64,000 bases of DNA, taken from contig CAYSYU010000020.1 in assembly GCA_964435245.1 (NCBI GenBank), positions 14,071 to 78,070 on the forward strand, written 5' to 3'. A model generated the notes under the pieces. It saw only the letters and a list, made by a program, of their open reading frames with translations. It searched no databases and was not told where the DNA came from. The stretch comes from an uncultured Methylomagnum sp. (lineage in GTDB: Bacteria; Pseudomonadota; Gammaproteobacteria; Methylococcales; Methylomonadaceae). Below, one piece after another: positions 34,770 through 48,917 of this stretch. Numbering within the stretch: position 1 is the stretch's first letter; every line of letters begins with the position of its first letter. The translations under genes and the position numbers were made by a program.

Positions 34770-35639
34770 TTATCGAATAATTACCGGCATCTCTGCTTTT
34801 CCCGAATAGTCGTATGGGATTGACCGGTAATAACTGCCTTCAACATAATCTAACCCGTATTGTCGGGCGAGCGAGTCGGCTTTTTTATCGTCGACCATTT
34901 GCAAGGTGATTTTGCTCTTGGCCGAAACAGCCACAGGAATGAAACCGTTTAAAATATCCTCGACGTCTTCGTCAAGATATTGGTTCAATGTCCTTGCGGA
35001 TATGAAAACAAAATTGGGCTGGGAAAGCCCGATCAAACTCAATAAATTTTTGTTACGCGGAATTTGATCGAATTTTAGGGCGATTTGGTAACCTTTCCGT
35101 CGATAATTTTCTAGCCCTGCGAGTAATTCCTGATAGTAGCGCGCATATTGGCTGTAGACTGTCAAAACGATAACCACCTTCTTCGTTTCAAGTCCGGCTT
35201 TCGCAATGAAGTCCTGAAAATAAACGCCATGGTCTTGTTTAATGCCTAGGATGTGGCGAGGATCCACTTCCAAAAACAAAAGTTGGTCAACGGACAGCAA
35301 AGCCAAATAATTCAAGACATGTACCGTTCGGGATAAGCGGTCAAAGGTGATGATGGATTCCAGGTTGGTATGGTATGTCGCCTGACCCGTCAATAAATCC
35401 GATATCTCGTTTTCATGCAAATAATGGTTGTTATTGGCGACGATTTCTATATTGGCTGTTTGGCCGACAATCTTGGTAGGCTTTGTGGTTTTCCGTATGG
35501 GAGAAAATGTGCTCCCTATGCTGATTGGCCCAAAAAGCCCGTTGACGCGGCCGTTTTTTAAAATAAACGGCCGAAAACTAAACTTATGTTCATGTTCAAA
35601 CGCATCGTTAAACACATCTACAAGATAGCCTAGCGACAT
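34770..35639 (-). CDS. degenerate EAL-like domain protein (probably non-catalytic)
   Basis: 289 aa. The order of EAL-domain landmarks is kept but the catalytic residues are replaced: LFLEVDP for the ExTE region, KGYQIALKFDQ for the DDFG region, FVFISARTL for the KxD region, and LDYVEGSYY for the QG region. Confidence 0.5.
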   Translation of the reverse strand: MSLGYLVDVFNDAFEHEHKFSFRPFILKNGRVNGLFGPISIGSTFSPIRKTTKPTKIVGQTANIEIVANNNHYLHENEISDLLTGQATYHTNLESIITFDRLSRTVHVLNYLALLSVDQLLFLEVDPRHILGIKQDHGVYFQDFIAKAGLETKKVVIVLTVYSQYARYYQELLAGLENYRRKGYQIALKFDQIPRNKNLLSLIGLSQPNFVFISARTLNQYLDEDVEDILNGFIPVAVSAKSKITLQMVDDKKADSLARQYGLDYVEGSYYRSIPYDYSGKAEMPVIIR

Positions 35640-35682
35640 AGCTTTACTCCTAATTCGTTGTTTGGTTGGGCAATGGCTAAAT

Positions 35683-35711
35683 AAAAAAACGGGCGGGTTA
35701 TAAACCCGCCC
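35683..35711 (-). terminator. strong Rho-independent terminator 44 nt upstream of the EAL-like gene and about 360 nt downstream of the desulfurase gene
   Basis: The minus strand reads GGGCGGGTTtatAACCCGCCC followed by GTTTTTTT. Confidence 0.75.
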
Positions 35712-36068
35712 AAAGTCATCCCTGGAGAGGTGGAAACTTTCAAGATCCTTGTTTGAAAGCGCGATGAGCCATTAACTTAACTGGGTTCCTTTGAGCAAAA
35801 TTGTAATGCGGTTCGTATTATTGATAAAACGATATAATTAGATGTATATATGACTTATAAAGATATAACTGAAACGGAAGCCATCAGCCAGGTTTGTAAC
35901 CCGTAAACTTTTAACGGACCGATAAGCGCAAGGGTGATGTCCTGAATGATTGCGCACTAGCCATCCGCAATCTATTTGCGTAGCCGGTAAGTGAAAGGAA
36001 GGCGGGTGACTATCGGTATAGTACGCGGCGTTTAACCCATTGCCATAGATGGATAAACGCCGGTTTAT

Positions 36069-37673
36069 TCAAGTTAAATGCCGAAATCCGAGATGCTTGC
36101 AACTGAGCTTACGGACGACTTGCGCCAGGCGGTCGATTTCATCGTAGGTGTTGTAAAAAGCGATTGACGGACGGACCGTCGCTTCCAAACCAAAGCGCCG
36201 TAAAATGGGTTGAGCGCAATGATGACCGGCGCGGACGGCGACTCCCGCTTTATTTAAAGCCGAGCCAACGTCGCTGGTGCTTATTCCAGGCAGTACAAAG
36301 GAAAGTACGCTGGTTTTTTCCTTAGCCGTCCCTATTAAACGGAGTCCCGGAATGCTTTGTAATTTTTCGGTGGCATATGCCAACAGTTCATGTTCATAAT
36401 ACGCTACGTTAGCGATGCCGATCCGACCTAAATACTCCAACGCCGCGGCTAACCCGACCGCATCGGCGATGTTCCCGGTGCCTGCCTCGAATTTGGCCGG
36501 TGCGGGTTGATAAGTGGTGTTTTCAAAGGTAACGTCCTCAATCATGTTGCCGCCGCCCTGCCAAGGCGGGCTTGCCTCCAATAATTCCGCCTTGCCGTAA
36601 AGCGCGCCAATACCGGTCGGCCCGTAGATTTTATGGCCGGAAAAAACAAACCAGTCGCAGTCCAAGGCTTGGACGTCGACAGCTAGGTGCGAGATGGATT
36701 GCGCGCCGTCCAGTAAAACCCTGGCGCCAACCCGATGCGCCAAAGCGATCATTTCCTGTGCAGGCGTAATCGTCCCTAACGCGTTAGAAACGTGGGTAAA
36801 TGAAACCAACTTGGTTTTGCTGTTCAACAGTTGCTGGTATTCGTGCAGTAAAATTTGGCCGCTTTCGTCAACTGGAATTACCCGTAAAACCGCCCCTATT
36901 TCTTTGCACAACTGCTGCCAAGGGACAATGTTGGCATGATGTTCCAGCCAACTGACGATGATTTCATCGCCCGAACCGATATTCTGTTTACCCCAACTTT
37001 GCGCCACCAAATTGATAGCTTCCGTTGAGCCGCGTACGAAAACAACTTCGGCACTGGAACTGGCGTTGATAAAACTGGCCACGGTGTCCCGTGCTTTTTC
37101 ATAAGCGTCGGTAGCGCGCGCCGCCAACTCATGCGCAGCGCGATGGATATTGGAGTTCTCGCGCCGGTAAAATTCGGACAATCGGTCGATAACGGCTTGT
37201 GGTTTTTGCGTTGTCGCGGCATTGTCCAGCCAAGCTAAGGGATAACCGTTTACCTGCTCCTGGAAAATCGGGAAATCCCTGCGGACTGCCTGGACATCGA
37301 AAGGGCGACGCGCCGATACAAAACTTAACGGGGTAAGATCGGTTGTTTGTGAAGGCAAATGGCTGGCGAAATAATAAGTCGGCGCACTTTCTAAAACCGG
37401 GCTTGAAACAGGATTTCGGCTAAATTTTTCAGCGAATGTTGCTAAATCGACATTGACGTGGAGGCCTTCATTTTGAAAGCTATGTTTTATTGCTTTATCC
37501 TGTCCCCAACCATCCAATGAACCGGCAGAGACGGCCTGAACCGGTATCGCTTCTACGTCACCGGGTGGCGTAGAAAAAAATTGGTTCGCCAGCCGATTAA
37601 GCTCGGCTAGGTCGGGCAGGCCAGGGATATCGGGGATAATATTTTTATATCCGTTCAGGTCACTTGTAGTCAT
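36069..37673 (-). CDS. cysteine desulfurase (SufS/group II type) with ~125-aa N-terminal disordered extension = encapsulin cargo-loading domain
   Basis: 534 aa. The class-V aminotransferase core starts near RRDFPIF. The PLP lysine lies in FSGHKIYGPTG and the catalytic Cys in RAGHHCAQP. The Pro/Ser-rich N-terminus contains LNRLANQFF, resembling the conserved LARLANEFF-type motif of family 2A encapsulin desulfurase cargo. The start overlaps the shell-gene stop by 14 nt. Confidence 0.9.
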   Translation of the reverse strand: MTTSDLNGYKNIIPDIPGLPDLAELNRLANQFFSTPPGDVEAIPVQAVSAGSLDGWGQDKAIKHSFQNEGLHVNVDLATFAEKFSRNPVSSPVLESAPTYYFASHLPSQTTDLTPLSFVSARRPFDVQAVRRDFPIFQEQVNGYPLAWLDNAATTQKPQAVIDRLSEFYRRENSNIHRAAHELAARATDAYEKARDTVASFINASSSAEVVFVRGSTEAINLVAQSWGKQNIGSGDEIIVSWLEHHANIVPWQQLCKEIGAVLRVIPVDESGQILLHEYQQLLNSKTKLVSFTHVSNALGTITPAQEMIALAHRVGARVLLDGAQSISHLAVDVQALDCDWFVFSGHKIYGPTGIGALYGKAELLEASPPWQGGGNMIEDVTFENTTYQPAPAKFEAGTGNIADAVGLAAALEYLGRIGIANVAYYEHELLAYATEKLQSIPGLRLIGTAKEKTSVLSFVLPGISTSDVGSALNKAGVAVRAGHHCAQPILRRFGLEATVRPSIAFYNTYDEIDRLAQVVRKLSCKHLGFRHLT

Positions 37674-38577
37674 GGTACTTGCCTATATCGACATTTTCCA
37701 GCACACCCAGGGCATCCTCGGTTAACACGGCCAAAGAGCAATAGAGGGAGACAAGGTAGGATGCAATTGCCTTATGGTTAATCCCCATGAACCGCACCGA
37801 CAGTCCCATGCTTAATTCATCGGTGAGATTAGGCTGAAATAATCCGACTACGCCTTGGCGGCTTTCACCGGTGCGCAACAACAGGATATTGGTTTTATTG
37901 TCGGTAATTTTAAGCTTATCAGTTGGAACCAGCGGGATTCCGCGCCAAGTCAGGAATTGTGAACCAAACAGGGAAACCGTAGGAGGCGGGGTACCGCGGC
38001 GTGTTGCTTCGCGTCCGAAAGCAGCAATCGCGCGGGGATGCGCCAGGAAAAACGCCGGTTCCTTCCAAACCCGGGCGATCAATTCATCCAGGTCGTCCGG
38101 CGTTGGCGCGCCAGCGCGTGTCTGCACTTTTTGCCCTGGCGCCACGTTGTTCAATAAGCCGTATTCAACGTTGTTGATTAATTCGCTTTCCTGCCTTTCT
38201 TTCACGGTTTCAATCGTCAACCGCAACTGTTCATGAATTTGGTTATGCGGGCTGCTGTATAAATCGGCCACGCGGGTATGGACGTCCAGTACCGTATTGA
38301 CAGCATTCAAGCGGTATTCACGCCCCCATTCTTCATAGTCGACATAGGTTTGCGGCAATACCTTTTCATCCAGGCTGGAACAGTCCACCGCTATACTGGT
38401 TTCGCTTTTGACTTTGTTAACCCGGTAAATACCCGCTTCTACAGGCACCCATTGCAACAAGTGAACCAACCACCGTGGTGTGATGGTCCCCATCATCGGC
38501 ACAGTCTTGGTTGCGTTGGATAAGGTACGGGCGGCGACGTCGCCTAGCGCCGTATGCGCTTCATGTATATCAGCCAT
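37660..38577 (-). CDS. family 2A encapsulin nanocompartment shell protein (SrpI-like, no cNMP domain)
   Basis: 305 aa. The N-terminus ...TITPRWLVHLLQWVPVEAGIYRVNKVK and the later DDLDELIARVWKEPAFFLAHPRAIAAFGREATRRG and GIPLVPTDKL match my memory of SrpI-type family 2 shells. The synteny with SAT upstream and extended desulfurase downstream is the published family 2A arrangement. Confidence 0.85.
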   Translation of the reverse strand: MADIHEAHTALGDVAARTLSNATKTVPMMGTITPRWLVHLLQWVPVEAGIYRVNKVKSETSIAVDCSSLDEKVLPQTYVDYEEWGREYRLNAVNTVLDVHTRVADLYSSPHNQIHEQLRLTIETVKERQESELINNVEYGLLNNVAPGQKVQTRAGAPTPDDLDELIARVWKEPAFFLAHPRAIAAFGREATRRGTPPPTVSLFGSQFLTWRGIPLVPTDKLKITDNKTNILLLRTGESRQGVVGLFQPNLTDELSMGLSVRFMGINHKAIASYLVSLYCSLAVLTEDALGVLENVDIGKYHDYK

Positions 38578-38605
38578 TTAAGGTCTCCTAAAGTAAGTTA
38601 AGTAA

Positions 38606-39580
38606 TTAATTCAATTCCGGCCGTTGTAGGTCGGCCGGTTTGCTCGATTGCATCGGGGCAGCCCCGCGCTGTTCCTGATGGGCTTGCGCCTGGGTTATAT
38701 AACTGCCCAGCGGCACACTATGGGTTAGCCAAACATTGCCGCCGATGACCGAACCGGCGCCAATCGTGATCCGGCCTAATAATGTCGCACCAGCATAAAT
38801 CACCACGTTATCTTCAATTACGGGATGACGCGGATAGCCTTTTACCAGCATGCCGTTTTCATCCTCGGTAAACCGCTTTGCCCCCAGGGTCACAGCCTGG
38901 TATAACCGGACATGATTACCAAGGATGGCGGTTTCACCGATCACGACGCCGGTGCCATGGTCTATAAAAAAGCTATTGCCGATTTGTGCGCCCGGATGGA
39001 TATCGATGCCGGTCGCGGAATGGGCGATTTCGGAAATAATGCGGGCAACCAACGGCACGCCAAGCCCGTGTAATACATGCGCCAAACGATAATGCACGAC
39101 AGCGGTAAGCCCTGGGTAACAAACCAGGACTTCATCGATATTGTGGGCGGATGGATCGCCTTCGTATGCCGCTTGTAAATCCGTATCCAACAAGGCCCGT
39201 ATCTCGGGTAATTTGGATGTGAACTGGTGGATAACGGCCTCAGCCTGAATTTCACAATCGGTTTCCAAGCCTTGTTGTTCCGCCGTAAAGACCAGCTCTA
39301 AACGGACTTGCCGATACAGGTCGTTCAAGGCGCCGCTTAAGGTATGGCCGACGAAATAATCGACCGCTTCTGGGCTCAAATCGGGCTTGCCGAGGCGATG
39401 CGGATAAAGCGCGGCGCCCAATTGGTCGACAATGACCGCCAGGATTTTGCGCGATGGTAAACGCGGCGGATGTTCGAGGCGTTTGCGGCTTTCCAGGGAC
39501 TCAAGGCGGAGTTGCCTTAATTCTCCGACACACTGCCCAACACCCCATCGGCTGTCGGTTTTAGAAGTAATTTGGCTCAT
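38606..39580 (-). CDS. cysE: serine O-acetyltransferase (long CysE/SrpH-like form)
   Basis: 324 aa with an SAT N-domain followed by hexapeptide-repeat left-handed beta-helix motifs (GIDIHPGAQIGNSFFIDHGTGVVIGETAILGNHVRLYQAVTLG). Confidence 0.9.
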   Translation of the reverse strand: MSQITSKTDSRWGVGQCVGELRQLRLESLESRKRLEHPPRLPSRKILAVIVDQLGAALYPHRLGKPDLSPEAVDYFVGHTLSGALNDLYRQVRLELVFTAEQQGLETDCEIQAEAVIHQFTSKLPEIRALLDTDLQAAYEGDPSAHNIDEVLVCYPGLTAVVHYRLAHVLHGLGVPLVARIISEIAHSATGIDIHPGAQIGNSFFIDHGTGVVIGETAILGNHVRLYQAVTLGAKRFTEDENGMLVKGYPRHPVIEDNVVIYAGATLLGRITIGAGSVIGGNVWLTHSVPLGSYITQAQAHQEQRGAAPMQSSKPADLQRPELN

Positions 39581-39661
39581 AATTGTGTATACGATTGTAA
39601 GTTATTGGCAAATCAACCTGTAATGGCTTCCCAGTCCTGTTTATAGCAGCAAAATTTTGGG

Positions 39662-39699
39662 CAAAAAAAAGCCAGTGGCCTAGGGCAGGCTCACTGGCT
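39662..39699 (-). terminator. Rho-independent terminator after the hydroxylase::DUF2934 (pseudo)gene, insulating it from the encapsulin operon
   Basis: The minus strand reads AGCCAGTG-loop-CACTGGCT followed by TTTTTTTT. Confidence 0.75.
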
Positions 39700-39759
39700 T
39701 CCGGTTGTCCGGTCAGCAATTTTAGCTTTTCTTTAGTTTCTGCTATTCGATGTCCCCTG

Positions 39760-40803
39760 TCAAGAAAGACTTAATCGGATATCCTGTTTGGTTACGGTCA
39801 ACAACAAATTTGTTGCTTCGTATAGGCGGTTGCCCACCGGTTTATTGCCATAAAGCTGTTTAATGATCTCTTGCTTAGCTTCCAGCCAATCCCGAATCTC
39901 ATGCCCTGGCGAAAAATTACGCTTTTCAGCCCGGTAATAAGCGGCTTCGGCAATCATAGCTTCCAAGGAAGGCATATTTGCTTCTTGCGGCAAAACCGGC
40001 GTTCCGAAAATGAAACCGGCTTTTATCAATCCCCACATATCTTGCGGGAGTGTTTCTTTTATACCGAGTTTTTCGGGTTCTGTTTCGGCAAAGGTATTGA
40101 ATAGGCGATCCCAGATGGAAAGTATTGCACCGTAATTCTTGTCATGCTCTTGCCGTTGCATGGAATGATGCAAACGGTGAAGGTAAGGAACGATAATCAA
40201 GTTTCCCAGCCGCTTTTCTCCCCTAAAAGCCAGGTTGCTGTGATGGAATATCAGGAATACCGTATTGACTGTTTCGTTCAGGAAAACGGTTTCTTCGCTA
40301 AAACCGAACAGGACGATATAGGCCGCTTTGGTCAACGTCATGGTTAAATGGTCCAGTGCATACACCCTAAAAGCGGTCGAAATATTCATCGTCAAATCGC
40401 TATGATGAATGCGGTGGAATTGCCAAAGTCATGGAAACCGGTGACTTGCCCAATGCCAAACGTAAAGCGACAGGTCGAACAACAAGAAAGAGAAAACAGC
40501 TTGCCCCAATGGTGAAAAATACGTGTGCAGAATATGGCTGGAATGATGCTCGGCTAACGCCAACAAGCTCGACAAAGAAACCAGTGATAAGGCGAGATTA
40601 TTGAAAACAAACAAGCCTAAATTTGCCCTATAGGATTGCTGCAAGGTGTTTTTCGGCCATTGCCAAAAAGAAAAGCGACGTTCCGTTATGAAAAAGAAAG
40701 TAAAAACAGCAATCGGCAGAAAAGTCGGCAAGACATTTTCTGCTGAGTTTGAAGCCATAGCGCCAAGCCCTAAAGATGTAGTTACAAAATTTGAATTTAA
40801 CAT
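39760..40803 (-). pseudogene. fatty-acid hydroxylase/sterol-desaturase-family protein fused to C-terminal DUF2934, interrupted by a single in-frame TGA (40429..40431)
   Basis: Track ORFs 40429..40803 and 39760..40395 are in the same frame (both starts are 0 mod 3). Reading through gives ...VWHWASHRFP*LWQFHRIHHSD...HHSNLAF...LHRLHHS..., which are the His boxes. The whole is colinear with the intact paralogue 51844..52917. The DUF2934-like tail is AEAAYYRAEKRNFSPGHEIRDWLEAKQEI. Confidence 0.8.
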
Positions 40804-41109: not shown

Positions 41110-41126
41110 TATCTGAATATCAGATA
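41110..41126. promoter_or_regulatory. 17-bp dyad TATCTGA-ATA-TCAGATA containing a LysR-type T-N11-A box, upstream of yezD
   Basis: Perfect 7-bp arms about 90 nt upstream of the yezD ATG. This is a candidate site for the nearby CysB-like regulator. The assignment is inference only. Confidence 0.3.
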
Positions 41127-41216
41127 TAAATATCGAATAATATCGTTTAGTTTTAAATAAGGGTTGCCTTAAGATTGCTTCCGAACACATGCTATCCCCC
41201 GGTTTTGGAGCAGTAA

Positions 41217-41408
41217 ATGACCTTTGAAAAAAATTATTTCGGAAAAGACCATCGCATAAACGATATCAGCGAACAGATTGCCTTGGCGGTAAATGGGATA
41301 CGCTTCGGTTCGGTCGAAATTATTATCCACGACGGTAAGGTCGTGCAAATCGAACGGAAAGAAAAGCTGCGCTTCGAAAACAGGGCGGCACTGAATACAA
41401 AATCTTAG
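41217..41408 (+). CDS. yezD: YezD-family small protein (DUF2292), typical of sulfur-assimilation operons
   Basis: 63 aa with GGAG 8 nt upstream. The core IRFGSVEIIIHDGKVVQIERKEKLRF matches the YezD/DUF2292 pattern as I remember it. Confidence 0.7.
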   Translation: MTFEKNYFGKDHRINDISEQIALAVNGIRFGSVEIIIHDGKVVQIERKEKLRFENRAALNTKS

Positions 41409-41531
41409 TTCTACCGTACCTACGGTGAATAACCTCAACAATTTTAACCTTGGGCTGACCGGATCGCTGGAAGTCATCACGGAAAATAAACTTTAATAAA
41501 CGGAACGATCCATTCAGTTCAAGGGGAAGAG

Positions 41532-47084: not shown

Positions 47085-48062
47085 ATGAACTTAAACCAAC
47101 TCGAGATTTTCCATATGCTTCAGGAGACGGGCTATAACCTGACCAAAGTTGCCGAAAAGCTTAATGTCGTCCAATCCGCCGTCAGCCGCCAATTGTTGAT
47201 GCTGGAAGATGAAATCGGTAACCCTTTGCTTGAACGCCACGGTAAACGCATACTCGGGCCGACCCCTTTGGGTGAATTGGTGCTGGCAGAGGCGGGGTCA
47301 GTCAAACAAGCCAAAAAGAATATCCGGTCTATCGCCGATGATTTTCTCGAAAATCGTGTCGGCACGTTACATATAGCAACCACCCATACCCAAGCCAAAT
47401 ATTTTTTGCCTAAACCTATCAGCCAATTCAGGGAAAAATACCCCCAGGTCAAGATTTACATTGAACAATCCTCTCCCGGTAATTTGACCAAGTTTTTGTA
47501 TCAACATAAGGCGGATATTGTTATTTGCACGGAAACATTGGAAGAAAACGATAAGCTAACCGTTAAGTCTTGCTACCAATGGCATCACATGGCTATCGTA
47601 CCCAAAGGCCATGTGCTTGCGGATAGCCAAATAACCTTGGAGAGTTTGGCTGCTTTTCCAATCCTGACTTATACCCGCGGCTTTACCGGGCGCAGCAATA
47701 TCGAAAAAGCCTTTAACAATGCCGGTATCGTGCTCGATATCACGCTGGCGGCGGCTGATTCAGACGTCATCAAAACCTATGTCCGCCTCGGATATGGGGT
47801 TGGTATTATTGCTGGAATTGCGTATGAACCGACGTTCGATTCGGATCTGGTCGCTATCAGTTTAAAAGATTTAATACCGGCTTCTATCACCAAATTCGCT
47901 TACCTTAAACAAAGCTACTTGCCGAAGTTTACGCGTTACTATATCGATCAGCTCCTAAGTTCGACGCCCGAAATCAATGAAAACCCTAAGCCGCGAGCAA
48001 CCACTGCCAAGGTGTCCGACGAAAGCATCAACGACACGACCAGCCCCCTAAGGGGACATTAG
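47085..48062 (+). CDS. cysB: CysB/Cbl-family LysR-type transcriptional regulator
   Basis: 325 aa, colinear with E. coli CysB (LHIATTHTQAKYFLP, TYTRGFTGRSNIEKAFNNAG, DSDVIKTYVRLGYGVGIIA). Confidence 0.85.
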   Translation: MNLNQLEIFHMLQETGYNLTKVAEKLNVVQSAVSRQLLMLEDEIGNPLLERHGKRILGPTPLGELVLAEAGSVKQAKKNIRSIADDFLENRVGTLHIATTHTQAKYFLPKPISQFREKYPQVKIYIEQSSPGNLTKFLYQHKADIVICTETLEENDKLTVKSCYQWHHMAIVPKGHVLADSQITLESLAAFPILTYTRGFTGRSNIEKAFNNAGIVLDITLAAADSDVIKTYVRLGYGVGIIAGIAYEPTFDSDLVAISLKDLIPASITKFAYLKQSYLPKFTRYYIDQLLSSTPEINENPKPRATTAKVSDESINDTTSPLRGH

Positions 48063-48917
48063 TATCGCTAACTTTTCTATCAATTCTTTCCGGGCGCTTG
48101 TTTTGCGCCAAACCAAAGCAATAGCCCGTTTGGGGGCAGGTTTTTCAAAAGGGATATAACGGATGCCCTCATCAGGTTCTCGTATAGCTATTTCGGGCAT
48201 TAATGTAATCCCCGTTCCTGCCTTTACCATTTGCCTTAAAGTTTCAAGGCCTGTCGCCCTGACATCCGGTTGTTCTTCGGCGTTGTTTAACTGGCAAAAT
48301 TGTAAAGCTTGGCCGCGTAGGCAATGGCCTTCATCGAGCAAGAGTAATTGTTGATGAAATAAGTCTTGTTGGGCGATCAACTTGTTTTTGGCAAGTGGAT
48401 TATCGCTTGCAACTGCCAGAAAGAACTCATCTTCAAACAATTTTTGAGTTACCAGATATTCATCGTTTATCGGCAGCGCCAGTAACGCGGCATCGAGTTG
48501 GCCCAACCTAAGCTGTGCAATCAGCTCATCGGTTTTTTCTTCAATTAAGATCAGCCTAAGATTCGGGAAAGCCAGCATGATTTTAGGGACCAATCCAGGA
48601 AAAATATACGTGGATAGCGTCGGGAACGCCCCCAGCCTAAAGTTACCTGCCAACGGATCTTGTGCATTGTCCGCAATACTTTCAATAGTATCCACTTCAA
48701 GCAAAATTCGCCGGGCCGAAGCAATAATCTTGTTGCCCAATTCAGTTGGAATCACCTTTTTATTGGTGCGTTCAAAAATCTGCACACCAAGGGTTTCTTC
48801 CATTTTTTTAATTTGCGTACTCAAGGTGGGTTGGCTGATGTAGCATTGGTCAGCGGCTTGAATAAAACTGCGCAGGTCGGCAACGGCAACTAGGTAACGT
48901 AAATCTCTCAGGTTCAT
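48048..48917 (-). CDS. oxyR: OxyR-like LysR-type peroxide-sensing regulator
   Basis: 289 aa, colinear with E. coli OxyR. This includes the redox Cys pair context LLLLDEGHCLRGQALQFC and ATGLETLRQMVKAGTGITLMP. The 3' end overlaps cysB by 15 nt (convergent). Confidence 0.85.
   Translation of the reverse strand: MNLRDLRYLVAVADLRSFIQAADQCYISQPTLSTQIKKMEETLGVQIFERTNKKVIPTELGNKIIASARRILLEVDTIESIADNAQDPLAGNFRLGAFPTLSTYIFPGLVPKIMLAFPNLRLILIEEKTDELIAQLRLGQLDAALLALPINDEYLVTQKLFEDEFFLAVASDNPLAKNKLIAQQDLFHQQLLLLDEGHCLRGQALQFCQLNNAEEQPDVRATGLETLRQMVKAGTGITLMPEIAIREPDEGIRYIPFEKPAPKRAIALVWRKTSARKELIEKLAILMSP

Follow-up and report, generated by a model that had tools for sequence, protein, structure and literature searches.

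A 64,000-nucleotide (nt) stretch of DNA from an uncultured Methylomagnum sp. (contig CAYSYU010000020.1; the whole stretch is called the window) was found to carry a desulfurase encapsulin operon that is preceded by a short conserved leader. The operon consists of a serine O-acetyltransferase (SAT) gene, the gene of a family 2A encapsulin shell protein, and the gene of a cysteine desulfurase, the cargo of the shell. The joint explanation that best accounts for the locus, to which a probability of about 0.85 was given, is that the three genes are a SAT-shell-desulfurase encapsulin operon and that the leader is a sulfur-responsive RNA acting by antitermination. Taken by itself, the cis-acting nature of the leader RNA is likely, and there is about an even chance that it is in addition undescribed and marks a sulfur-assimilation regulon with a sensor of sulfur limitation. 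The encapsulin is an ordinary further member of an already known system. All coordinates are positions in the window, and the SAT, shell and desulfurase genes are read on the minus strand (Table 1). For comparison, 80 loci (L001–L080) were used, from a scan taking one genome per species.

Shell protein and organization of the operon

The shell protein matched the NCBIfam model for family 2A encapsulin nanocompartment shell proteins (NF041162) over model positions 1–295 of 295, with a score of 527.8 bits (cutoff 380, E = 5.9e-159). It also matched the SrpI-like family PF19307 of Pfam (355.3 bits, 1.8e-106); a check with family 2 encapsulin models had been proposed in the preliminary description. 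The shell was 74% identical to the cryo-electron microscopy (cryo-EM) structure of Synechococcus elongatus SrpI (6X8M), gapless over 298 residues, and 72% identical to that of the Acinetobacter shell (8T6R), also gapless (298–299 residues). In addition, it scored 439 bits against mycobacterial Mmp1. Judged by its homology to the solved structures 6X8M and 8T6R, the protein is a capsomer of the HK97 fold. Since it is 72–74% identical to shells that were shown to assemble, it would be expected to form a T=1 60-mer of ~24 nm. Family 2A is separated from family 2B by having no insertion domain that binds cyclic nucleotide monophosphates (cNMP). This domain was absent from the shell (305 amino acids, aa), to which the 2B model aligned only via its positions 208–449 and the 2B structures 9BJE and 9BHU only via residues ~229–474.

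The three open reading frames (ORFs) proposed earlier, of 324, 305 and 534 aa, were confirmed in place. The gap between SAT and the shell gene was 28 nt, and an AGGAG Shine-Dalgarno sequence was located 8 nt before the shell ATG. The 14-nt overlap between the stop region of the shell gene and the start of the desulfurase gene, which had been noticed before, was confirmed by reading the junction. This junction, CATGACTACAAGTGA, encodes the C-terminal H-D-Y-K-stop of the shell and, in the other frame, the M-T-T-S of the cargo. An in-frame ATG located 14 nt before the end of the shell stop codon was present in 42 of 76 loci, and the C-terminus of the shell was conserved as [HYD][EDT]YK-stop, the same codons supplying the overlapping cargo ATG. 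Because the −14 ATG was kept in so many loci, the overlap is a family trait and is consistent with the translational coupling of shell and desulfurase that had been suggested. SAT stood immediately upstream of the shell gene in 56 of the 76 related loci, and sulfate-transporter genes were found within 8 kb in 32 of the 80. The strong terminator after the desulfurase gene (hairpin 35712..35690) is the probable 3' end of the operon transcript, and this hairpin, together with the sequence preceding it, was 81% conserved in the Methyloglobulus locus L003.

Table 1. Positions of the operon, the leader and neighbouring features in the window.
Feature	Position	Strand	Remarks
EAL-like gene	34770..35639	−	289 aa; sub-threshold EAL match (24.3 bits, cutoff 31.3)
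Strong intrinsic terminator	35680..35712	−	10-bp GC-rich stem and T7; ~360 nt past the desulfurase stop
Operator-like motif site	35830..35852	−	before the EAL-like gene
Desulfurase gene	36069..37673	−	encapsulin cargo cysteine desulfurase, 534 aa
Loading motif 2, SAPTYYFASH	37388..37359	−	aa 96–105; counterpart of published AASPYYFLDG
Loading motif 1, LNRLANQFFS	37601..37572	−	aa 25–34; counterpart of published LARLANEFFS
Shell gene	37660..38577	−	family 2A encapsulin shell protein, SrpI-like, 305 aa
SAT gene	38606..39580	−	serine O-acetyltransferase, long type, 324 aa; first gene of the operon
Intrinsic terminator of the leader	39663..39700	−	13-bp hairpin 39700..39669 and T8; 5' arm AAGCCAGUG
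Leader core	39696..39717	−	22 nt, GCUGACCGG-ACAA-CCGGAAGCC; general form GCUGACCGG-N4-CCGGAAGCC
P1 stem	39712..39709 with 39704..39701	−	flanking GCU and AGC can lengthen the hairpin
−35-like hexamer TTGACA	39758..39763	−	putative promoter of leader and operon; CTTGACA conserved at the same distance from the core in Methylococcales
Fatty-acid-hydroxylase-family gene	39760..40803	−	in-frame TGA at 40429..40431
Operator-like motif site	41123..41145	+	before yezD
DUF2292/YezD gene	41217..41408		
Second leader core	41454..41475	+	GCTGACCGGATCGCTGGAAGTC = GCUGACCGG-AUCG-CUGGAAGUC; divergent, between yezD and porin-sbp-cysTWA
CysB-family-like LysR gene	47085..48062	+	after cysA; CysB family is the best match, under its cutoff
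OxyR-like LysR gene	48048..48917	−	288 bits, cutoff 329

Desulfurase cargo and serine acetyltransferase

The cargo scored 867.5 bits against the cargo-specific model NF041166 (cutoff 800, E = 8.1e-261), and SufS models were passed as well. The closest solved relative of its catalytic domain was the mycobacterial encapsulin desulfurase 8KG1 (610.8 bits, residues 118–524). By alignment with SufS structures, the lysine of pyridoxal phosphate was located in SGHK (aa 345–348) and the catalytic, persulfide-forming cysteine in GHHCAQP (aa 483–489). The E. coli SufS/CsdB structures aligned from cargo residue ~125, which corresponds to SufS residue 3–5, and this start of the alignment confirms the reported N-terminal extension of ~125 aa beyond housekeeping SufS. 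The extension had also been called rich in proline and serine. It is enriched in both, but only moderately, with 9.6% proline and 10.4% serine in residues 1–125 against 3.7% and 6.4% in the catalytic domain.

Most SrpI-associated desulfurases carry the motifs LARLANEFFS and AASPYYFLDG (Nichols et al. 2021, PMC8049743). In the window cargo, LNRLANQFF was present exactly where it had been read before (nt 37601..37575, cargo residues 25–33); its likeness to the family 2A loading motif was borne out, and a counterpart of the second published motif was also found. By analogy with the homologues, the cargo would be loaded via this N-terminal domain and elemental sulfur would be deposited in the shell. 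The length of the loading domain varied ~3.5-fold among close relatives, and by 200–330 aa even inside Methylococcales. Despite this variation, the first loading motif (L-x-R/K-L-A-N-x-F/L-F) remained near the N-terminus. The catalytic DNAAT motif was located between residues 132 and 481 in 42 homologues (median ~238); in the window cargo it was at residue 150, which makes its loading domain the third shortest among the homologues compared. That of L003, the closest relative, was 200 aa longer.

The SAT contained the Hexapep domain of left-handed beta-helix SATs and scored 274.6 bits against the solved SAT structure 3F1X over residues 39–301. Its score against the EpsC-type SAT model NF041874 was above the cutoff (157.1, cutoff 150), and its score against the housekeeping CysE equivalog TIGR01172 was below it (161.8, cutoff 210.65). 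On these model scores, the enzyme is of the long, encapsulin-associated or EpsC-like type. Canonical CysE binds CysK through its C-terminal isoleucine; the window SAT ends in ...PELN, without a C-terminal isoleucine. Altogether, the earlier claim of a family 2A encapsulin with a desulfurase cargo and SAT in one operon was fully supported by models, identity, motifs and synteny.

Structure of the leader in the window

The leader was noticed by comparing the intergenic regions of the window with the 80 loci. It consists of a 22-nt core with the P1 stem, followed by an intrinsic terminator whose 5' arm begins within the core, the last five bases of the core (AAGCC) opening the arm. In the preliminary description, a terminator at 39662..39699 had been taken as the upstream border of the operon. 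The hairpin and the T-run are real, but they are the expression platform of a conserved leader rather than a passive border. The isolated core was predicted to fold as an extended hairpin, with GCU/AGC around CCGG/CCGG, at −8.9 kcal/mol, and this extended hairpin takes up bases that the base of the terminator requires.

Upstream of the core, the −35-like hexamer is followed by a weak −10-like hexamer, GAAACT (39740..39735). Leader and operon are putatively transcribed from this TTGACA/GAAACT region, in which the hydroxylase gene upstream has its stop codon. In the Methylococcales copies, CTTGACA was followed 17 nt on by a TAnTTT-like hexamer, and the Methylophilaceae copies shared TAGTTAGC directly before the core. 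Promoters with a start site at the core or immediately ahead of it are suggested by these conserved upstream sequences.

A second core was found on the plus strand of the window. It lacked a terminator. Pairing is predicted between its 5' half and the bases next to the porin Shine-Dalgarno sequence (fold z = −3.7), and the copy was conserved in L003. The covariance model R1, which was built without the second core, picked it up independently with 16.8 bits (E = 0.24). The model R2 gave 30.6 bits (E = 4e-4) and was built from sequences including this copy.

Distribution and covariation of the leader

The core was present in 18 of the 80 genome loci at no more than two mismatches, with variation confined to the four loop bases. 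When the core-only covariance model R2 was run on the 80 genome loci, the known copies and four weak matches were returned, and no further copies. Metagenomes were scanned with the pattern only, blind to gene content, and 120 stretches were obtained. About 47 of them had the hairpin and the T-run; the others, situated in GC-rich coding DNA, appear to have been matched by chance. Together, ~70 loci from genomes and metagenomes carried the core, in each case on the coding strand and just upstream of sulfur operons. The DNA of core and hairpin was 80–93% identical across Methylococcales and Methylophilaceae (Betaproteobacteria), whereas the flanking proteins were only ~55–70% identical.

A readable downstream gene was available for 63 copies, from the metagenomes and the genome loci, and all 63 were co-oriented with sulfur-related genes and stood 60–230 nt upstream of them. 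The first downstream gene was cysK in 29 copies (cysK-SAT-shell-desulfurase), SAT in 23 (SAT-shell-desulfurase), the shell gene in three (shell-desulfurase), and cysJ in another three (cysJ-cysI sulfite reductase). One copy preceded short unannotated ORFs with cysJ as the third downstream ORF, one preceded unclear ORFs and then SAT, and one preceded the gene of a MetQ-type binding protein with an ABC transporter. The remaining two copies, in metagenome loci L134 and L198, preceded the gene of a sigma-54 activator without a receiver domain. Furthermore, one 423-kb metagenome contig carried two leader copies, one before cysJI and one before cysK-SAT-shell. The activator of L134 and L198 is sigma-54-dependent and carries AAA+ and HTH_8 domains, and we take it to resemble the SfnR-type regulators of sulfur starvation. 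The position of the leader ahead of its gene suggests a regulatory cascade.

Over 39 distinct copies that were aligned, 94–95.3% of the terminator helix was paired, and seven of its pairs were changed on both sides. Its covariation measures beat every or nearly every one of 500 shuffles, as well as all register-shift controls. The P1 stem varied in a few copies: two Methylophilus copies had CUAG/CUGG with compensatory A-U and U.G pairs, the copies before OprO/P-type porin-sbp operons had CCAG/CUGG, and the second copy of the window had CCGG/CUGG. Because these changes are compensatory A-U and G.U, the variants keep the RNA helix and break the DNA palindrome. The helices of the leader are supported by covariation, and the leader is tied to sulfur genes.

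Two kinds of platform were found on the same core, as in other riboswitch-like leaders: an intrinsic terminator or a helix that sequesters the Shine-Dalgarno sequence. In the sbp-cysT copies (L136, L144), it is the 3' half of the core that pairs, with GAGGA of the Shine-Dalgarno region. In Methylophilaceae, the leader is preceded by sbp, which runs divergently on the opposite strand, and only ~25 nt separate the T-run from the SAT start. As this arrangement leaves no space for another promoter, the operon can be transcribed only through the terminator in that family. As to its reach, the leader would mark a regulon made up of cysK-SAT-encapsulin-desulfurase, cysJI, porin-sbp-cysT, the sigma-54 activator and metQ, in Methylococcales (methanotrophs), Methylophilaceae (methylotrophs) and further Proteobacteria of fresh water or soil; this reading, with the leader undescribed so far, has about an even chance.

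Proposed mechanism and alternative explanations

In the proposed mechanism, transcription would start upstream of the hairpin 39700..39663, from the promoter at ~39763..39735, and would terminate at 39663 when sulfur is replete. Under sulfur limitation, a protein or a small ligand would stabilise the extended core hairpin; the base of the terminator would then be blocked, and RNA polymerase would continue into SAT-shell-desulfurase. The co-transcribed SAT would supply O-acetylserine for cysteine synthesis. Translation of the desulfurase would be coupled to that of the shell by its start inside the conserved C-terminal codons of the shell gene. Sixty shell copies would assemble as the T=1 shell, and the desulfurase would be loaded by its short N-terminal domain, which is presumably disordered as in the homologues. 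The loaded enzyme would turn cysteine into alanine and leave protected elemental sulfur within the shell. We infer antitermination and an ON polarity, as all three arrangements of core and platform imply that a stabilised core hairpin should turn expression ON. Because the core is so small, a protein-dependent antiterminator is at least as likely as a metabolite riboswitch.

Several points weigh against this explanation. The core was invariant in most copies, and for the metagenome copies this invariance was imposed by the search pattern; as the core is otherwise invariant, the covariation support for P1 rests on few variant copies. According to the minimum-energy prediction, P1 and the full terminator coexist in the leader of the window, and the antiterminator is just a 3-bp extension, so an outside factor would be needed. 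The putative −10 hexamer of the window is weak, and the 81 nt by which the SAT start is separated from the T-run could hold another promoter, with a match to TTGCCA-18-CACAAT ending 1 nt before the SAT ATG. As to the encapsulin, its assembly, cargo loading, sulfur storage and regulation are proposed by homology, and loading efficiency could differ, since the loading domain of ~125 aa is shorter than that of the systems studied so far (~225 aa).

The hairpin 39700..39663 might instead be a plain terminator of the hydroxylase gene, with the operon promoter in the 81 nt that follow. The hydroxylase ORF is on the same strand and ends at 39760, 60 nt before the hairpin, and the weak promoter-like match lies at 39611..39582. 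However, the same core and hairpin were found where the upstream gene is another one (LysR, an unannotated 468-aa ORF) or is divergent (sbp), and the element follows the downstream operon, not the upstream gene. In addition, the SAT ATG is only ~25 nt past the T-run in Methylophilaceae, the promoter-like match would yield a leaderless mRNA, and promoter-like sites were no commoner than in shuffled sequence (9 found, 8.9 expected). A plain terminator is thus unlikely. Slightly more credible, but still improbable, is an independent gene of a trans-acting small RNA (sRNA) of ~70–90 nt, made up of promoter, core and terminator, in which the core would be a seed or a protein site. Such an arrangement of a promoter, a short conserved 5' region, a terminator hairpin and a U-tail is typical of Hfq-type sRNAs, and the sole weak Rfam resemblances of the leader were to the sRNAs CyaR (22 bits) and RybB. 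This would not account for an element that is always co-oriented and stands 60–230 nt ahead of the first gene of a sulfur operon, whichever gene that is. Moreover, some copies have no terminator and pair instead with the downstream Shine-Dalgarno region, and several lineages have no space for a second promoter. The roles of sRNA and cis leader do not exclude each other.

The core could also be read as DNA, namely as an operator just past the promoter, where a transcription factor would bind the palindrome CCGG-N4-CCGG. Its palindromic arms with a variable spacer are like those of many operators, and the region is near the putative promoter. This reading is very unlikely, since the variants CUAG/CUGG and CCGG/CUGG keep RNA pairing via G.U and not DNA symmetry, the conserved flanks GCUGA and AAGCC are asymmetric, and the 3' end of the core is always part of the terminator arm or of the helix sequestering the Shine-Dalgarno sequence. 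For the operon itself, the alternative is that the 305-aa protein is the HK97 capsid of a remnant prophage and that the desulfurase is a housekeeping SufS, adjacent by chance. The HK97 fold is indeed common to encapsulins and phage capsids, but shell and cargo both clear family-specific curated models, no further phage genes are nearby, 76 loci from different phyla keep the shell and desulfurase genes as an overlapping pair, and the cargo bears encapsulin loading motifs. The phage origin is effectively refuted.

Some known classes of control were tried and rejected. Leader-peptide attenuation was dismissed because the frames that cross the core contain stop codons in some copies (TAG before the core, GGA-UAA loops) and there is no conserved start and no run of Cys or Met codons. 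On inspection, the defining features of T-box, ANTAR (dual hexaloops), K-turn and CsrA-type (GGA in a loop) elements were missing.

Comparison with known leaders and encapsulins

A search of the whole window against Rfam 15 at gathering thresholds gave no match; Rfam 15 is expected to include the sul1 motif discussed below. At E ≤ 10, the leader returned only spurious, terminator-driven matches to CyaR, RybB and Tombus_3_IV. In the literature search for a sulfur-responsive leader or an encapsulin-linked riboswitch, no description was found. In other bacteria, the sul1 motif (Weinberg et al. 2017, PMC5737381), a cis-regulatory RNA that is still an orphan, precedes the genes of sul1 sulfate transporters and of serine acetyltransferase. 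Like it, the present leader is a short conserved 5' leader near sulfur genes including SAT, but the two differ in sequence and structure. In the ribonucleic antiterminator (RAT)/terminator leaders of BglG, SacY and LicT, as in our leader, a conserved hairpin overlaps the 5' arm of the terminator and prevents termination when stabilised. With the S-box (SAM-I; SAM, S-adenosylmethionine), it shares the marking of a multi-operon sulfur, cysteine and methionine regulon. It has no sequence or structural similarity to RAT or S-box, and its sensor of 22 nt is far below the size of a SAM aptamer. Unlike the S-box, it has proteobacterial hosts and is predicted to be ON at sulfur limitation rather than OFF with SAM. 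Sulfur control in Proteobacteria is attributed to CysB-type proteins, and to our knowledge neither a riboswitch nor an RNA attenuator responding to sulfur limitation has been described in this phylum.

Benisch et al. 2024 catalogued 1462 desulfurase encapsulin operons in 11 phyla with four operon types, AT-Enc-CD among them, and found the desulfurase as the sole cargo and crystalline elemental sulfur accumulating in loaded shells (PMC10836720). In the Acinetobacter operon, which includes rhodanese, all four genes, AT included, were induced ~10-fold on sulfur limitation (PMC10836720). According to Andreas and Giessen, the accessory genes that are most enriched in family 2A desulfurase systems are those of SAT and rhodanese. 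The preliminary description was right that the family is published and not new in kind. Its warning that the genes are easily mis-annotated is out of date, as NF041162 and NF041166 now name both proteins, and its statement that the physiological role is open is partly outdated, with elemental-sulfur storage and induction by sulfur limitation shown for homologues (PMC10836720).

Compared with SrpI/CyD of S. elongatus PCC 7942 (PMC8049743; 6X8M/6X8T), the window system has the closely similar shell, a SufS-type desulfurase cargo with an N-terminal loading domain carrying LARLANEFFS-like and AASPYYFLDG-like motifs, and a locus tied to sulfate-starvation genes. It differs in its loading domain (~225 aa in Synechococcus) and in its operon, which begins with SAT and is chromosomal, near sbp-cysTWA; no such leader was reported for SrpI. 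The Acinetobacter baumannii 118362 encapsulin (PMC10836720; 8T6R) shares the similar shell, the order AT-Enc-CD and the desulfurase cargo. By homology, elemental-sulfur storage and the ~10-fold induction under sulfur limitation may apply to the window operon as well, which has no rhodanese, unlike that of A. baumannii. The N-terminal domain of the A. baumannii cargo has ~225 aa and five partly conserved motifs, of which only two were compared in the window cargo. The mycobacterial Mmp1/Enc-CD system (PMC11659603; 8WOL, 9KSL, 8KG1) possesses the catalytic domain closest to that of our cargo (8KG1), and the shell matches Mmp1; its host is actinobacterial, and its operon context and regulation are different.

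A cysK-SAT-shell-desulfurase layout was observed in Methylobacter-like loci (L002, L004, L006, L008, L009, L013, L046) and in many metagenome loci. The cysK of these operons encodes cysteine synthase A (TIGR01139, 460, cutoff 351), and the window has no such gene. This layout is outside the four types of Benisch et al. 2024, which weighed only rhodanese and AT (PMC10836720).

The wider sulfur locus

The neighbouring genes yezD, porin, sbp, cysT, cysW, cysA and the CysB-like LysR gene were present as described before, and Sbp, CysT, CysW and CysA all cleared curated cutoffs, in agreement with the suspected sulfur island around the operon. The porin of the transporter operon belonged to the Alginate_exp family. 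The two operons had been placed directly beside each other, but the transporter operon is divergent and separated from the encapsulin operon by the fatty-acid-hydroxylase gene. The in-frame TGA of this gene replaces a tryptophan conserved in Methyloglobulus (HWASHRFP*LWQFHRIHH against HWASHKFPWFWQFHRIHH, TGG-to-TGA), and it is a mark of a pseudogene or a sequencing error. The closest of the 80 loci were from Methylococcales (Methylomonas, Methylobacter, Methyloglobulus). Methyloglobulus morosus KoM1 (L003) has the whole neighbourhood at 67–95% amino-acid identity, in the order cysT-sbp-porin-yezD, hydroxylase, SAT-shell-desulfurase, EAL-like gene. By this synteny and by amino-acid identities of 84–95% to M. 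morosus KoM1, the window was assigned to a methanotroph of Methylococcales related to Methyloglobulus.

A CysB-type DNA site had been suggested for 39581..39661, and the operator-like motif shared in the clade was not there. This 23-nt motif, GATATnnATATCnnATnATATCG, with a TTATCA-16-TACAAT-type promoter, occurred at exactly two sites of the window (Table 1), where ~0.05 were expected. It was also present before SAT in L019 and L007, relatives without the RNA element, and upstream of the EAL-like genes in L002 and L004. The motif is a candidate binding site for the CysB-like regulator, and in this clade the DNA operator and the RNA leader appear to be interchangeable or combined as regulatory layers. 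The CysB-like and OxyR-like LysR genes converge, with a 15-nt overlap at the 3' ends.

The EAL-like protein had no relative by sequence among solved structures. Its gene was near the encapsulin operon in at least seven Methylococcales loci, with varying position and orientation, and its co-occurrence with the RNA element across loci showed no correlation. A putative promoter of the gene lies at 35827..35800, and the terminator hairpin 35712..35690 follows ~90 nt on, before the ATG at 35639; the terminator at 35680..35712 also falls within the leader of this gene. The hairpin and the preceding CCUCUCCAGGGAUG were conserved in L003. The hairpin may act as another attenuator, or the EAL-like gene and the encapsulin operon may share it as a terminator.

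Implications

The encapsulin adds little by itself, being one more of >1400 catalogued operons, and is notable for its methanotroph host and its short loading domain. With ~125 aa, this domain is among the shortest that keep both conserved motifs, a natural minimal targeting tag for engineering. If the explanation given here is true, one RNA core would be common to sulfate uptake, sulfite reduction, cysteine synthesis and a sulfur-storage compartment. The encapsulin would then be firmly tied to the assimilatory sulfur regulon, and both its switch-on and the sensing of sulfur limitation by RNA in Proteobacteria would be directly testable.

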